This document shows positions 2,850-10,047 of a stretch of DNA of 46,052 nt, piece after piece. Below the pieces are notes generated by a model. The model had not been told where the DNA came from, did no database searches, and saw only the letters and a program-made list of their open reading frames with translations. Source of the DNA: a virus (taxonomy: Duplodnaviria > Heunggongvirae > Uroviricota > Caudoviricetes). The position numbers and the translations under genes are program-made. Location of the stretch: the IMG/VR virus record IMGVR_UViG_2671180885_000005; one strand, 5' to 3'. The stretch's first letter is position 1. Each line of letters begins with the position of its first letter.

Positions 2850-3193
2850 TATTTCACCTCTTGCTGTGACATTGTTGAAAAATGGATACCAGCTCGTTGC
2901 TGCCAGACGATCCAACCGAGAGTCATATCCCATGCCATGTATTCGTTATCGCCGTTTTTTGCTCTCCGACGATCGACTGTTTTACCGAAACGCTTTTCCA
3001 TAAATAATTCATAGGCTGCGCGTTCATCTGGCTCAACTTCCAGAGATGCCAGTGCAATCCGTGCCAGTTCTAAATCATTTTCAAGCTCAGCGCGAATCTC
3101 AGCGAATGCACTCTGTGTTAAGGTGAACTCAATGCTCTGCACTTTATTCCGTGCGCGCTCAAGCAGTGCATGGTAGTTAATTTCGGTTGTCAT
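2849..3193 (-). CDS. hypothetical phage protein (114 aa)
   Basis: ORF with a strong SD (GAGGTAGGGG) before the ATG at 3193; its stop overlaps the xis start (TAATG). Confidence 0.6.
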   Translation of the reverse strand: MTTEINYHALLERARNKVQSIEFTLTQSAFAEIRAELENDLELARIALASLEVEPDERAAYELFMEKRFGKTVDRRRAKNGDNEYMAWDMTLGWIVWQQRAGIHFSTMSQQEVK

Positions 3194-4068
3194 ACCCCTA
3201 CCTCTTCGAATTCCAATTCCAATTGATCACCCCAGATTTCACATGACTCTGAACACGAGCCGGTATCGAATCGCCTGGCCTGTACCATCGCCTGATACAA
3301 ATTTCTGTAGTCGCTGTTGGCAGACATTCTGGCAATTCCGTCAAGCGTCAGGTGACCACGGTACATAATGTCTTTACCTGTTCTGCGATGATCATCCCTG
3401 ACGTGTTTGCCTGTAACCAGCTCATTAAAAACTCGCATCAGACCTGGTTCGTCTTTACATGCAAGCCCCAGCTTTTGCGTTGACTTTTTGATGCAGAAAA
3501 CACAGTTCCCGAGATGCTCCGGGATTTGCAAATCAAAAGGTTGTTTTCGCCACCACCGGATAACATCCGACTTATCAAAATCTGACAGCTCGGCAAGATA
3601 CCGGACGCCCGATTTCGGTTTCAGCCTACGGGGTTCGTCTGCACGAATACCCAGCCATGTGATGTAATTACCTCGCCCGAAATGGTTATCGCAGTATTTC
3701 GTGAAAGGGATGAGTTTTAGCCTGTCAGTACAGAACGCGCCGCCGATGTATGGCGTGCCGTACTTTTTAACCATGTCCATAAACGGTTTAAGCACCGGCA
3801 TTCGTGTCTGAATATCCTTTGGCTCCCATTCTGTATAACCATTTGGCTGCCCAAGCTCAGGATTTATATCGACCTGTAACACAGTTAGTGGTATGTCCCA
3901 GAACTTCACAACCTCCCGGATAAAGCGGTATGTCAGCGGATGTTCGCAACCGGTATCCATAAAGATGTAGCAGACGTTATTGCCAGCCTTTCTTTGTTCT
4001 TCCATCAGGTGAACAAGATATGCGGATGTTCTCCCGCCAGAAAAACTAACTACATGAGTTATGCACAT
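3190..4068 (-). CDS. PAPS reductase-family PP-loop ATPase
   Basis: Translation from the internal ATG at 4068 (MCITHVVSFSGGRTSAYLVHLM...) shows an SGGxxS PP-loop-like motif typical of the PAPS reductase / adenine-nucleotide alpha-hydrolase superfamily; start chosen to avoid a long overlap with the upstream gene. Confidence 0.75.
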   Translation of the reverse strand: MCITHVVSFSGGRTSAYLVHLMEEQRKAGNNVCYIFMDTGCEHPLTYRFIREVVKFWDIPLTVLQVDINPELGQPNGYTEWEPKDIQTRMPVLKPFMDMVKKYGTPYIGGAFCTDRLKLIPFTKYCDNHFGRGNYITWLGIRADEPRRLKPKSGVRYLAELSDFDKSDVIRWWRKQPFDLQIPEHLGNCVFCIKKSTQKLGLACKDEPGLMRVFNELVTGKHVRDDHRRTGKDIMYRGHLTLDGIARMSANSDYRNLYQAMVQARRFDTGSCSESCEIWGDQLELEFEEVGV

Positions 4069-5975: not shown

Positions 5976-6575
5976 TTTGCTGCTCCTCATCATATCGACC
6001 CTGCAAGGCCGATTAGTTTCTCCACAAAACAGAGAAGAACACCTGCGGTGGCAGCCGCCCGGATGGATTGGGTTATGAGCCCGTCGTCCGGTGATGCTCT
6101 TCTCTGTTTTGTAAAAAGAGCGGTACCAGCCGGAAGCAAGGGTACAAACTGGTACCGCCAGGACTACACACAGCATAAAGTTGTGGTGCCGGGTGCCTCC
6201 CGGTGCCTGGCGAAGGTTGCACACCAGACGGGTGGGTATCCACAGAAGGTCGACTGTCAGCCTCAACCTTAACCCGCGTGCGCTGAGCCGCATTCACCAC
6301 AACGCTAAGGATTCTCTCTGGTTGAAAATACTTAGCTGTTATGTGCCTGTCTTTTCACCACTTCAGGCTCGGTGGTATCCTTTTAAGCCCGTATACATAA
6401 AAGGAAAATCAAATGACTTTTGATGAAAAAGAACTTGATAATGCAATTAATAAAATCATCGTAACGTCGCTCTTTTCCTGTCTCAGCGACACTCAGCAGA
6501 AACAGTTCTACGAATCGGCTTTCAACATGATCGAGCGTTGTTGTTTCTGCGATGCCGACGAGTTACCTGAAAAAA

Positions 6576-6851
6576 TCAGGAAACAGTTGGCTGATGCTCT
6601 TCGAGTGCGACTTTCTGACCAATTTTCTGAAATGTGCTCTCCGAATTTGGACAAATAGAAAAAGGCCATTTCCATTCAGGGTCTGATGGAAATACTTCAG
6701 CCTGTTCCAAAGCACGGTGTAAAGAGAACACAACTCCAGCCATAATCTGATGTTTCCCATTGGTCCAGCTATCGCCGCTCTGATCTACAGGAGCGGCTAT
6801 GTCGTATGACCAAACGACTTCACCACTATTGTTTAAAATCTGGACTTTCAT
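6576..6851 (-). CDS. hypothetical protein (91 aa)
   Basis: ORF with GGAGG SD before the ATG at 6851, immediately after the upstream minus-strand gene; its 3' end overlaps antisense with the plus-strand ORF 6413..6658, so only one may be real. Confidence 0.45.
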   Translation of the reverse strand: MKVQILNNSGEVVWSYDIAAPVDQSGDSWTNGKHQIMAGVVFSLHRALEQAEVFPSDPEWKWPFSICPNSESTFQKIGQKVALEEHQPTVS

Positions 6852-6859
6852 TTTGTTCT

Positions 6860-7063
6860 TTAACCTCCAGATTTCCGCGCATCTAAAGGCGCATTCTCAT
6901 TTGGTGTGAACTGAATAGTTGTGCTGATATTGATTAATGCCCCGACACACAAGACTACGCACTCAGAGCAGATAGCAACTTCATCTTTTCCGCCTTTGGC
7001 GATGATTTTTTTTGCCTGCAGCTCGTTTGCGCTACAAAACGAGCATGTGAAATAACGGTTCAT
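6860..7063 (-). CDS. small protein with ClpX-type C4 zinc-finger motif
   Basis: MNRYFTCSFCSANELQAKKIIAKGGKDEVAICSECVVLCVGALI resembles the ClpX N-terminal zinc-binding domain (CSFC...CxxC); start uncertain between 7063 and 7081. Confidence 0.55.
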   Translation of the reverse strand: MNRYFTCSFCSANELQAKKIIAKGGKDEVAICSECVVLCVGALINISTTIQFTPNENAPLDARKSGG

Positions 7064-7168
7064 TTGCGCTCTCTTACACATAGTATTTAACGAATCATCC
7101 GGTCATTCATACGCCACCGGCGGCTACTTCGTGGGCGTCCTGCCTGTTCGTTATCTTTGATATAAAAT

Positions 7169-7182
7169 CTAACTTAACTTAG
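7169..7182. promoter_or_regulatory. candidate OL operator (CTAAC-N4-CTTAG palindrome)
   Basis: 14-bp near-palindrome CTAACTTAACTTAG in the intergenic region downstream of the repressor gene; same motif as the two sites between cI and cro. Confidence 0.4.
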
Positions 7183-7247
7183 TTATTATGGCAAGAGAAA
7201 ACACCAAACTTTTCTTAGTTCGGTGCCTTAGTTAGAGAAGAGAGGTC

Positions 7248-7874
7248 TTAGAGTTCGTATTGAACTCCTTTGACTACACCAATGATAAGGCAATTACCAT
7301 TGATAGGGATGTTGGGATACCGAGGATTTAATGGCACTAAAAACTTTTGAGGGCCATCGATGACTAATTTTTTTACTGTAGCTTCGTTTGTTCCATCAAG
7401 TCGAGCGATGACTATTTTTCCATGACGAGGTTCTGCATCTGGATCTACAATCACTGTTGCGCCTTCTGGTATTGTTGGGAGGCCATTAGGGTTAGTCATG
7501 GAGTCACCTTTAACCTCTAATGCAAATGAGTTATCACCAATCTTTAATGATGTATCTACCCACTTGTCCACTTCACTAAACACTTCTGCTGCCCTGCACT
7601 CAGTAAACTGCCCAGCCTGAACCCACGATATTACAGGAACTCTGCGCATGTTTGTGACGAGTTTGCCTTCAAACTCAGCACCATAAAGAATGTAATCTAT
7701 TGACGTATTGAAGAACTTCGCTAATTTCGAAAGTGCCTCCCCACCAGGGGTATTGATGTCTTTCTCCCAGTACCCCACAGCAACGTCGCTTACTCCACAA
7801 AATTTACCCAATTCTTTCTGGGACGTTCTGGTAACTCTTCTCAGAGCTTTTATACGCTGACCAACCGTTTCCAT
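7248..7874 (-). CDS. cI: CI-like prophage repressor (HTH-XRE plus S24 LexA-like peptidase domain)
   Basis: N-terminal HTH (QKELGKFCGVSDVAVGYWEKD), C-terminal S24 autoprotease motif (GDSMTNPNG...K); divergent from a cro-like gene. Confidence 0.9.
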   Translation of the reverse strand: METVGQRIKALRRVTRTSQKELGKFCGVSDVAVGYWEKDINTPGGEALSKLAKFFNTSIDYILYGAEFEGKLVTNMRRVPVISWVQAGQFTECRAAEVFSEVDKWVDTSLKIGDNSFALEVKGDSMTNPNGLPTIPEGATVIVDPDAEPRHGKIVIARLDGTNEATVKKLVIDGPQKFLVPLNPRYPNIPINGNCLIIGVVKGVQYEL

Positions 7875-7896
7875 AGGAGCACCATTTTTTGAATTG

Positions 7897-7910
7897 CTAA
7901 GTAATCTTAG
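7897..7910. promoter_or_regulatory. candidate OR operator site 1 (CTAAG-TAAT-CTTAG perfect palindrome)
   Basis: Perfect 14-bp palindrome in the cI–cro intergenic region. Confidence 0.45.
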
Positions 7911-7945
7911 TTTTTATTGACCAAAGATAGATTTGTAATTAGCAT

Positions 7946-7959
7946 CTAACAAAACTTAG
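7946..7959. promoter_or_regulatory. candidate OR operator site 2 (CTAAC-AAAA-CTTAG)
   Basis: Second copy of the same motif 36 bp from site 1, just upstream of the cro SD. Confidence 0.4.
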
Positions 7960-7971
7960 TTTGGAGGGCGT

Positions 7972-8172
7972 ATGACAACTGACGATATCGAAAGCTACTT
8001 CGGCAGTATTGAGAAAGTTGCTGCTTTTTTCGGCATAACAACTGAAGCCGTTTATCAGTGGCGAAACCGTCCGGGCCAGTTAATTCCAAAAGGACGTGCA
8101 GCAGAAGCTGCATATAGAACTTGCGGACGGTTGCCATTTAAACCTGAGCTTTATGAAAAATCTAATGGATAA
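7972..8172 (+). CDS. cro: Cro-like / YdaS-like HTH regulator
   Basis: 66-aa ORF divergent from cI, SD GGAGGG before the ATG; HTH segment FGITTEAVYQWRNR. Confidence 0.75.
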   Translation: MTTDDIESYFGSIEKVAAFFGITTEAVYQWRNRPGQLIPKGRAAEAAYRTCGRLPFKPELYEKSNG

Positions 8173-8761
8173 ATCGATTAACAGAAACCACAGAACGATG
8201 AGGCTAACCGTGGGTAAGCATCACTGGAAAGTAGAAAAACAGCCTGAGTGGTACGTGAAAGCTGTCAGAAAAACTATCGCAAAGTTGCCGGGTGGTTACG
8301 CTGAAGCAGCTGACTGGCTGGATGTAACAGAGAACGCATTATTTAACCGCCTTCGTGCCGATGGCGATCAGATTTTCCCGCTGGGATGGGCAATGATTTT
8401 GCAACGTGCTGGTGGAACTCACTTCATTGCTGACGCTGTGGCGCAGTCTGCAAATGGCGTCTTTGTGTCTCTTCCTGACGTCGAGGATGTGGACAACGCC
8501 GATATTAACCAGCGTCTGCTGGAAGTCATTGAACAGATCGGCAGTTATTCAAAACAGATTCGTTCAGCAATCGAAGACGGTGTAGTGGAACCGCATGAGA
8601 AGACAGCAATTAACGACGAGCTGTATCTCTCAATTTCGAAGCTGCATGAGCATGCAGCACTGGTCTACAAAATCTTTTGCATTTCAGAAAGTAATGACGC
8701 CCGCGAGTGTGCAGCTCCGGGCGCCGTGGCGTGTCGTGACTGTGGAGAAACTAACGCATGA
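8153..8761 (+). CDS. YdaT/CII-like regulatory protein (putative)
   Basis: Immediately follows cro in the cII position; resembles the YdaT family that follows ydaS in Rac-like prophages. Start ambiguous (8096 GTG, 8153 ATG or 8165 ATG). Confidence 0.5.
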
Positions 8762-9105: not shown

Positions 9106-10047
9106 ATGAGCACTAAATTAACCGGCTATGTATGGGATGGTTGCGCAGCGTCAGGCATGAAATTATCCAGCGTGGCAATTATGGCCCGCCTGGCTGATTT
9201 CAGTAATGACGAAGGTGTGTGCTGGCCATCAATTGAAACCATTGCCCGTCAGATTGGCGCGGGGATGAGTACCGTCAGGACGGCTATCGCACGGCTGGAA
9301 GCAGAAGGCTGGTTAACGCGTAAGGCGCGTCGCCAGGGTAACCGCAATGCGTCGAATGTTTATCAGCTTAACGTTGCGAAGCTTCAGGCAGCGGCATTTT
9401 CTCAACTGTCAGATTCTGACCCGTCAAAATCTGACGCATCAAAATCTGACCCGTCAAAATTTGATGCGTCGAAATCTGGCAAAAAAGCGGGTTTTCACCC
9501 GTCAGAATCTGGCGGGGATCCGTCAGTAAAATCAAAACATGATCCGTCAGATAAAAAACCTTCTCGTCCGGACGCTTCGCAACCGGACACGCAGACGGCT
9601 GAACAGTATTTTTTAACTCGCCATCCTGATGCGGTTGTATTCAGCCCTAAAAAGCGCCAGTGGGGGACGCAGGATGATTTGACCTGCGCACAGTGGCTCT
9701 GGAAAAAAATCATCGCCCTGTACGAGCAGGCCGCCGAATGTGACGGCGAGGTGGTTCGTCCCAAAGAACCGAACTGGACAGCCTGGGCAAACGAAATTCG
9801 CCTGATGTGTGTGCAGGATGGTCGTACTCACAAACAAATCTGCGAGATGTACAGCCGCGTCAGCCGCGATCCGTTCTGGTGCCGTAACGTGCTCAGCCCG
9901 TCGAAGCTGCGGGAAAAATGGGATGAGCTTTCCCTGCGCTTATCGCCGTCCGTAAGCACGTACACCGAAAAACGCGAAGACCCGTACTTCAAATCCAGTT
10001 ACGACAACGTGGACTACAGCCAGATCCCGGCAGGATTCAGGGGGTGA
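9106..10047 (+). CDS. phage replication initiation protein (O-like, N-terminal winged-helix)
   Basis: 313-aa ORF; N-terminal DNA-binding region (IETIARQIGAGMSTVRTAIARLEAEGWL); contains an internal array of ~15-bp iterons as in lambda O/ori. Confidence 0.8.
   Translation: MSTKLTGYVWDGCAASGMKLSSVAIMARLADFSNDEGVCWPSIETIARQIGAGMSTVRTAIARLEAEGWLTRKARRQGNRNASNVYQLNVAKLQAAAFSQLSDSDPSKSDASKSDPSKFDASKSGKKAGFHPSESGGDPSVKSKHDPSDKKPSRPDASQPDTQTAEQYFLTRHPDAVVFSPKKRQWGTQDDLTCAQWLWKKIIALYEQAAECDGEVVRPKEPNWTAWANEIRLMCVQDGRTHKQICEMYSRVSRDPFWCRNVLSPSKLREKWDELSLRLSPSVSTYTEKREDPYFKSSYDNVDYSQIPAGFRG
9406..9557 (+). repeat. iteron array (candidate origin of replication) inside the O-like gene
   Basis: Repeated ~15-bp units CCGTCAAAATCTGAC / GCATCAAAATCTGAC / CCGTCAAAATTTGAT / GCGTCGAAATCTGGC / CCGTCAGAATCTGGC / CCGTCAGTAAAATCA / CCGTCAGATAAAAAA visible in the sequence. 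Confidence 0.7.

Follow-up and report, generated by a model that had tools for sequence, protein, structure and literature searches.

Why would a prophage keep, directly behind its repressor gene, a detached copy of the substrate-receptor domain of the host protease ClpXP? The question is raised by a 67-residue protein encoded at positions 6860–7063 of IMG/VR record IMGVR_UViG_2671180885_000005, a stretch of viral DNA of 46,052 nucleotides (the window, throughout this text), which is a lambdoid prophage of the SfV/e14/CPS-53 type. The protein is one ClpX-type C4 zinc-binding domain (ZBD) with a short variable tail, and its gene, here called the ZBD gene, appears to be the first open reading frame (ORF) of the repressor-controlled leftward early transcript. 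Taken jointly, this identity and this position leave hardly any room for doubt. The domain family, the RefSeq annotation and the phage protein family are already on record; what we add is the proposal that a detached ClpX receptor domain may serve a phage as an immediate-early accessory protein.

The preliminary description of the window had placed a 67-residue ORF at these coordinates and had seen in it the C-x2-C...C-x2-C pattern of the ClpX zinc finger. Both claims held. The ORF is found exactly there, on the minus strand, and its product (MNRYFTCSFCSANELQAKKIIAKGGKDEVAICSECVVLCVGALINISTTIQFTPNENAPLDARKSGG) matches the Pfam family zf-C4_ClpX (PF06689) with 37.4 bits against a gathering cut-off of 27 bits (E = 2.3e-9, profile positions 2–34 of 39). 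Two relatives score 37.3 bits (P0012) and 26.2 bits, slightly under the cut-off (P0020). The zinc-ligand cysteines C7, C10, C32 and C35 (CxxC...CxxC) align with C14, C17, C36 and C39 of ClpX and are invariant in our alignment of the phage subfamily (A2). An unrelated zinc ribbon, the outcome that would have spoken against the earlier assignment, was not returned by the profile search: the next-ranking Pfam families (Elf1, E = 0.11; NOA36) lie far under their cut-offs, and neither Ogr_Delta nor Com, nor any zinc ribbon of the nucleic-acid-binding type, is among its Pfam matches at E ≤ 1. A phmmer search against all PDB sequences found ClpX or its isolated ZBD and nothing else (2ds5, 1ovx; E = 1e-3), the aligned stretch of the phage protein being nryftCSFCsanelqakKiIAkggkdevaICsECVvLC. 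At the same time, the protein is not ClpX, since it has 67 residues and no AAA+ module, and its scores against the NCBIfam equivalogs are far below their cut-offs (PRK05342, 24.3 bits against 359; TIGR00382, 21.3 against 370.75), the matches covering the first ~45 positions only. In RefSeq, the product of near-identical DNA is annotated by the Prokaryotic Genome Annotation Pipeline (PGAP) as 'ClpX C4-type zinc finger protein' (WP_001083098.1). In PHROGs the protein belongs to phrog_5259, function unknown, and no PADLOC model matches it, orf91 (the next gene in the leftward transcript) or their neighbours.

Structural comparison points in the same direction. The shallow family alignment yielded an AlphaFold model of low confidence (predicted local distance difference test score, pLDDT, of 62), which predicts two short strands (residues 20–23 and 30–32) and a C-terminal helix (33–48), as in 1OVX and 2DS5. 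When this model was compared with the PDB by Foldseek, the top six matches were ClpX or its ZBD, and all lower ones had E > 1. For the five ZBD crystal structures among these six, the template-modelling score normalized on the target was 0.75–0.78, with a root-mean-square deviation of 1.6–1.8 Å and 33–36% identity. The best fold matches were 2ds5, 2ds6 and 2ds8, the last being the complex of the ZBD with the SspB tail (XB).

The gene is clearly maintained as a gene. Its start codon, ATG 7063, is shared by all homologues, whose N-terminus reads MN(R/N/S)Y(F/Y)TCSFC; a 73-residue reading from the upstream ATG 7081 was rejected, because that codon has no Shine-Dalgarno sequence and the homologues begin at the second ATG. 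Over the first 46 codons, compared among 21 different nucleotide versions taken from viral contigs and the window, the proportion of synonymous differences between subtypes (pS) is near saturation at 0.4–1.0, that of nonsynonymous differences (pN) is 0.16–0.21, and the mean pN/pS is about 0.25. The gene is thus under strong purifying selection. At codon 11 (7031–7033), right after the first zinc knuckle, the window copy has Ser (CSFCS), whereas Gly (CSFCG) stands at this place in ClpX itself, in the 20 remaining distinct versions and in the rest of the intact homologues. Of 5,426 complete E. coli genomes, 98 carry the gene at ≥95% nucleotide identity, almost always as a single chromosomal copy, and related ZBD subtypes occur in the Salmonella phages F1055 (ST64B-like) and 118970_sal3 as well as in many IMG/VR prophage contigs. 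A scan of a contig collection returned four distant matches in metagenome-assembled genomes and none of the enterobacterial ZBD family, an absence explained by the collection holding one genome per species. Some copies carry 1-bp indels, namely the E. coli matches H57, H58 and H66–H72 (203, 205 or 200 bp, without an annotated coding sequence) and loci L050–L054; judging from these frameshifted, unannotated copies, the gene is decaying in some lineages.

The position of the gene was the other claim of the preliminary description, which put it next to the repressor gene and first in the leftward operon, and this, too, is borne out. The gene order is int, xis, HD hydrolase, yfdQ, yfdP, orf91 and the ZBD gene, then the cI-type S24 repressor; beyond the repressor come a Cro-type regulator, YmfL, which is CII-like, and an initiator resembling lambda O (9106–10047), with a Q-type antiterminator at a greater distance. 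A near-identical E. coli prophage with annotation shows the same order. The ZBD gene lies 184 bp downstream of the repressor gene, which encodes a helix-turn-helix (HTH) domain together with Peptidase_S24, and the interval is occupied by a terminator-like hairpin, the predicted promoter pL, an operator-like palindrome overlapping it and a conserved leader (Table 1). SfV has an annotated terminator at the place equivalent to the hairpin, and in other immunity types, alignments reveal a TTGACA-like box equally far ahead of the leader. The operator-like motif, CTAASN4STTAG, has five matches in the 46 kb, four of which flank the repressor gene, two per side. On the right-hand side, the Cro-type regulator defines the divergent immunity region. 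Given the terminator-like hairpin, pL, the operator overlapping it and the motif shared by both sides, we infer that the ZBD gene is the first ORF of a repressor-controlled leftward transcript and probably is not co-transcribed with the repressor in the lysogen. The next gene, orf91, starts 8 nt past the ZBD stop codon, and its GGAGG Shine-Dalgarno sequence falls within the last ZBD codons.

Table 1. Features of the locus; positions are those of the window, except for the last two rows, which refer to the loci named
Feature	Position	Strand	Details
orf91, next gene in the leftward transcript, 91 aa, function unknown, SfV orf33 homologue	6576..6851	-	phrog_3195, E 5.5e-63
ZBD coding sequence, 67 aa	6860..7063	-	ATG 7063-7061, TAA 6862-6860
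ZBD core, ~residues 5-46; tail 47-67, variable, low-confidence	within 6860..7063	-	
Shine-Dalgarno-like AAGAGAG	7069..7075	-	5 nt ahead of ATG 7063, read from sequence
Structured leader RNA, 66 nt, helices P1, P2 and P3 around a conserved junction	7088..7153	-	5' end of the leftward transcript
Predicted pL: -35 TTGCCA 7194-7189, 17-nt spacer, -10 TAGATT 7171-7166	7166..7194	-	sigma-70 consensus scan
Operator-like palindrome CTAACTTAACTTAG (OL)	7169..7182	.	overlaps pL spacer and -10; 14-mers shared with cI-cro spacer
Terminator-like hairpin and U-run, after the repressor gene, before the pL -35	7198..7229	-	13-bp stem, -15.1 kcal/mol, z -3.45
Weaker operator-like site	7205-7218		inside the terminator-like hairpin
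cI-type repressor, HTH_3 + Peptidase_S24, LexA-like	7248..7874	-	Pfam; phrog_4, transcriptional repressor
Right operator region: CTAAGTAATCTTAG 7897-7910, CTAACAAAACTTAG 7946-7959	7897..7959	.	flank pR
Predicted pR TTGACC-17-TAGCAT	7917-7945	+	between CTAAGTAATCTTAG and CTAACAAAACTTAG
Cro-type regulator	7972..8172	+	Pfam P22_Cro, 42.8 bits
~300-aa opposite-strand gene in L007, L009, L010 and similar	2908-3828		
~300-aa opposite-strand gene in L066	2759-3679		

Two further observations concern the immediate surroundings of the gene. A resemblance to the lambda boxA (CGCTCTTA) is seen on the plus strand at 7064–7079, which reads CGCTCTCTTA. The stretch lies antisense to the leftward transcript and overlaps the ribosome-binding site of the ZBD gene, so the resemblance is probably a coincidence. 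Past the ZBD gene, the convergent ORFs 6413–6658 (plus strand) and 6576–6851 (minus strand, orf91) overlap by 83 bp and have full-length PHROG matches, to phrog_3311 (E = 1e-55) and phrog_3195, respectively; in the near-identical prophage, PGAP annotates only the minus-strand member of the pair.

How constant is this position, and is the gene essential to it? Context statistics come from pattern-based scans with 80–120 loci listed, which are not independent samples. A readable ZBD gene was found at 82 viral-contig loci (80 from IMG/VR and two from Salmonella phages), and the same-strand ORF just upstream of it was examined in 75 of these 82 listed loci. That ORF mostly encodes 208–244 residues and ends 170–340 bp before the ZBD start. 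The encoded proteins fall into at least eight clusters below 70% identity, all of them HTH + Peptidase_S24 repressors, and every major repressor type is paired with several ZBD subtypes. Five other immunity types also have operator-like palindromes on both sides of the repressor gene, the left copy always 100–150 nt before the ZBD start. In one group of relatives, an opposite-strand gene for a ~300-residue protein separates the repressor gene from pL and the ZBD gene; it occupies the slot in which lambda carries rexAB, and may be an accessory or defence gene expressed in the lysogen.

The slot behind the leader, at 6576–7087 in the window, varies greatly in its occupant. SfV and phage 689R6 have the leader and no ZBD gene. 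In the first scan, which listed at least 120 loci, the ORF next to the leader encodes a 68-residue coiled-coil-like protein of phrog_1744 in 21 of the loci listed, the ZBD protein in about 14 and an SfV-orf33-like protein in about 13, and more than 30 other small proteins also occur there; the PHROG function of all the alternative cargo genes scanned is unknown. About a quarter of complete E. coli genomes (1,386 of 5,426) have the leader, as against the 98 with the ZBD gene. The leader being far commoner than the ZBD gene, the alternative first genes many and some ZBD copies frameshifted, the gene is optional cargo, an accessory gene that can be exchanged for many others at the head of the early operon. 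As a separate observation on this operon, phage vB_EcoM-689R6 (L001) has, shortly after the leader at ~3803–3814 on the minus strand, the sequence GCUCUUUAACAA, preceded by an A-run and a hairpin. It appears identical to the rrn-type boxA consensus and hints at Nus-factor-dependent antitermination in the same operon.

What, then, could a detached ZBD do? The ClpX N-domain is a docking platform for several proteins, MuA among them. The ZBD of ClpX is the common docking site of lambda O, SspB, RssB and trigger factor; its hydrophobic Phe16/Ile46 pocket overlaps the site used by lambda O and adaptors, and without the ZBD, ClpX leaves lambda O undegraded (PMC7804408). The isolated domain binds LKxh-type peptides, and the XB peptide competes with adaptor docking (PMC7226468). 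The phage subfamily has an invariant Phe9 where ClpX has Phe16, and in place of the ClpX strand RKLIAG it has KKIIAKG, invariant or nearly so; this Phe and the KKIIA strand are part of the known docking surface of ClpX.

From what is known of the ClpX N-domain, we propose that the free ZBD would compete with ClpX for ZBD-docking motifs. Such competition is to be expected if one considers that the ClpX N-domain is a common docking platform and that the isolated ZBD binds peptides. The protein would be made at once upon prophage induction or infection and would fold, probably as a dimer like the ClpX N-domain. As a soluble decoy of that domain, it would bind the short hydrophobic or basic motifs that tether adaptors and substrates to ClpX, its targets perhaps including the XB tail of SspB, RssB, UmuD and N-domain-dependent substrates of the lambda-O/MuA type. 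N-domain-dependent degradation by ClpXP would be transiently lowered, and directly recognised tags would still be largely degraded. Conservation, complete or nearly so, of the four zinc ligands, Phe9 and KKIIAKG in the subfamily argues for this proposal. Lambda itself carries protease modulators at the same locus, CIII directed against FtsH in the pL operon and RexB acting on ClpXP-dependent O turnover next to cI. We regard the competition as the likeliest role, though at somewhat less than even odds. The stronger claim, that the phage decoy selectively shuts down a single branch of ClpXP proteolysis within minutes of derepression, strikes us as rather unlikely to hold as stated. The decoy hypothesis is plausible and attractive, but nothing in the sequence forces it.

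Several observations weigh against a decoy. The gene is dispensable, as it is absent from most leader-bearing relatives and frameshifted in some genomes. A lambda-O-like replication gene is not enriched in its company: 43 of 83 loci with the ZBD gene have one, compared with 46 of 109 loci without it. At the docking surface, the sequence gives mixed signals. The position of ClpX Ile46 (phage position 42) is variable in the family and Ala in the window, the neighbouring Ile47 being a conserved Leu/Met43; the position of ClpX Tyr34 is an invariant Ala in the phage subfamily; and a subfamily-specific insertion of three residues (the GGKDE loop) lies between the two strands. Because of these changes, the docking groove may differ in specificity. 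Proteins other than ClpX also use the fold, as small tandem proteins or fused to sigma-70 or LuxR-type HTH domains, and its presence does not by itself point to a role in ClpX biology. The structural model is of low confidence (pLDDT 62), and a literature search found no functional study of any stand-alone ZBD, phage or bacterial.

Some of these observations count in favour of the closest competitor of the decoy, namely that the protein has kept the fold and changed its client, serving as a zinc-stabilised peptide-binding or dimerisation module against some other host or phage protein, for instance in anti-defence or host takeover, with no link to ClpXP. We consider this nearly as likely as the decoy. 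The features that are invariant in the subfamily and unlike ClpX (the AKGG(K/R)DE insertion, Ala for Tyr34, CV for CN) fit a different partner, as do the many non-ClpX contexts of the domain and the lack of association with the O-like gene. The dozens of unrelated small genes of unknown function that occupy the slot after the leader are typical accessory early genes, and the ZBD gene would simply be another. On the other hand, the residues most shared with ClpX include precisely Phe9/Phe16 and the KKIIA strand of the docking surface, no fusion or conserved neighbour points to another partner, and PADLOC returned no match.

A direct action on ClpX is also conceivable: the phage ZBD might form heterodimers with the ZBD of ClpX, disrupt its trimer of dimers and thereby alter substrate choice. 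The ClpX ZBD is a dimerisation domain, as Wojtyra and Donaldson reportedly described in 2003, and the phage protein has kept the hydrophobic helix C-V-x-L-C-V-x-x-L-I. However, its identity to the ClpX ZBD is only ~35%, and the ClpX ZBDs within a hexamer should be at very high local concentration, which would make exchange with a free monomer unfavourable. Poisoning of this kind therefore seems improbable.

Somewhat more improbable still is a nucleic-acid-binding early regulator comparable to P2 Ogr/P4 Delta or Mu Com, possibly working through the adjacent leader RNA. The gene would then hold the position of N or Nun in other lambdoid phages: it is first in the pL transcript and directly follows a conserved structured RNA, and small phage C4 zinc-finger regulators do exist. 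Against this stand the absence of the corresponding Pfam matches reported above (Elf1, at E = 0.11, being the nearest approach), a net charge of about +1 as counted from the sequence, and the distribution of the leader, which is ~14 times more frequent without the ZBD gene than with it. As the leader mostly occurs without the gene, the two are not a functional pair. Finally, a chance ORF or a decaying remnant without function, which the shortness, optional occurrence and occasional frameshifts of the gene might suggest, is ruled out by the selection analysis (pN/pS of ~0.25 with saturated synonymous sites) and the profile match (E of 2e-9), quite apart from the conserved start and Shine-Dalgarno sequence and the constant position beside at least eight repressor families.

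The leader that precedes the gene deserves attention in its own right. When loci with unrelated promoters and operators are compared, homology starts abruptly a few nt past the predicted -10 box, with a near-invariant block of ~62–66 nt that begins ~6–8 nt after the predicted start site and is much more conserved than the ZBD coding sequence. Each of two scans of viral contigs for its core found at least 120 loci. A three-helix model was tested on a gapless alignment of 56 distinct sequences: P1 closes the element, P2 is a small hairpin, and P3 has a conserved 12-nt loop. Under this model 94.6% of cells are paired, compared with 75.7% in column shuffles and 22–43% when partners are slid; double-change cells number 145 against 40.5 expected, and compensatory changes occur at 9 of the 14 pairs. 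Covariation support is strong for P1 and P3 and weak for P2. P1 exists in at least five unrelated versions (GCGAA/UUCGC, ACGAA/UUCGU, CCACC/GGUGG, UCAUC/GAUGA and GGAAC/GUUCC) and P3 in at least seven; hardly any variation is seen in the P3 loop or at the junction (CACGAAGUAGCCG, GGAUGA). The minimum free energy fold of the single sequence is no more stable than that of shuffled sequences (z = −0.14); the structure became visible only through covariation.

A covariance model of the leader finds one copy in the window (92.6 bits, the runner-up having 14.6 bits), and hence no second copy in the rightward operon. Rfam 15 has no match to it at E ≤ 1 (positions 6500–8300, both strands), no RefSeq feature lies beneath any of its listed matches, and literature searches with strings of its sequence returned unrelated primer matches only. 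Run on the same alignment, RNAalifold recovered P1 and P2 and replaced P3 with an invariant GCC/GGC hairpin; we retained P3 on account of its compensatory changes. The GCC...GGC hairpin (window 7117–7128, columns 30–32/39–41 of alignment A5) and P3 (7099–7120, columns 34–38/51–55) are mutually exclusive, and may represent alternative conformations or a switch. Two readings of the leader were tried and rejected: a leader peptide, MNDRMIR, whose ATG is not conserved in Salmonella variants, and a hammerhead-like core, which has unfitting junction lengths and no Rfam match. The nearest known analogue is putL of HK022, likewise a structured element of ~65–70 nt within a few nt of the pL start in a lambdoid phage without N (PMC9378689). 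However, the leader has three helices and putL two stem-loops, and homology was rejected: the two are unalignable, and the covariance model (R1) finds nothing at putL of HK022, its best score being 8.6 bits at another site. The leader may act in cis, as an antiterminator or anti-pausing element of the long leftward operon ending in xis and int; it may bind a ligand or a protein; or it may be processed into a small RNA. We consider it a candidate for a new RNA that regulates the early transcription of prophages in cis.

With ClpX itself, the ZBD protein has in common a C4 zinc site of identical spacing and neighbouring residues (CSFC...ICxEC), a fold predicted to be the same, and conserved counterparts of Phe16 and of the RKLIA strand; it differs in lacking the AAA+ module, in the three-residue insertion, in the changed Tyr34 and Ile46 positions and in being encoded in a prophage early operon. 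Closer to it in architecture are the stand-alone or tandem PF06689 proteins of diverse bacteria, likewise small (50–130 residues) and composed of only one or two ZBDs. Among 1.8 billion proteins, 148 representative clusters of this kind reach E ≤ 1e-3; no function has been described for them in the searchable literature. The enterobacterial prophage subfamily is set apart from these by its signature, TCSFCG..E..AK+I+AKGG+DE.AICS.C, and by its fixed position behind a repressor gene. Stand-alone ZBD proteins are widespread beyond the enterobacteria, and among the occurrences there (P0016, P0024–P0158) we noted ZBD fusions to sigma-70 regions, LuxR-type HTH, ornithine/aspartate carbamoyltransferase and a KH domain, as well as one protein of 2,505 residues with 37 ZBD-like repeats.

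Small phage proteins directed at host proteases are a familiar theme. In lambda, CIII inhibits FtsH, and RexB inhibits the ClpXP-dependent turnover of antitoxins as well as of O. Both are small inhibitors of host AAA+ proteases encoded at or next to the pL/cI region, as the ZBD gene is, but CIII (an amphipathic-helix competitive substrate) and RexB (a membrane protein) are related to the ZBD protein neither in sequence nor in fold, and a decoy would act by a different mechanism. T4 PinA and T7 Gp4.5 act against Lon. SPO1 Gp53 is reported to be an adaptor-like modulator of ClpCP (PMC6873191). Together these three provide the precedent of early phage proteins retuning a host AAA+ protease, as proposed here; however, they are unrelated proteins, and none copies the protease's own receptor domain. 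The anti-adaptors IraD, IraM and IraP bind RssB via unrelated folds (PMC6546054; bioRxiv 10.1101/2023.01.07.523045). Like the proposed phage inhibitor, they are small proteins that block substrate delivery to ClpXP and leave the catalytic machinery untouched, but they do so by binding the adaptor, whereas the phage protein would mimic the docking domain of ClpX.

The stakes for the phage are easy to see. ClpXP determines how stable many regulators of phages and hosts are, among them lambda O, MuA, the Mu repressor, LexA fragments, UmuD′, sigma-S and several antitoxins, and if the decoy proves true, a detached docking domain would be a very economical way to retune this control at induction. 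Selective switch-off of one ClpXP branch could stabilise phage early proteins or block the ClpXP-dependent turnover of antitoxins or sigma-S. The protein would then be, to our knowledge, the first viral protease inhibitor that mimics the protease's own substrate-receptor domain. It would also be an inhibitor that is available as it stands, can be encoded genetically and is specific for those ClpXP substrates that depend on the N-domain, and the uncharacterised stand-alone ZBD proteins, widespread as they are, would gain a function. Even if the decoy is wrong, the ZBD protein of this prophage is still an entry point to the function of hundreds of such uncharacterised proteins.

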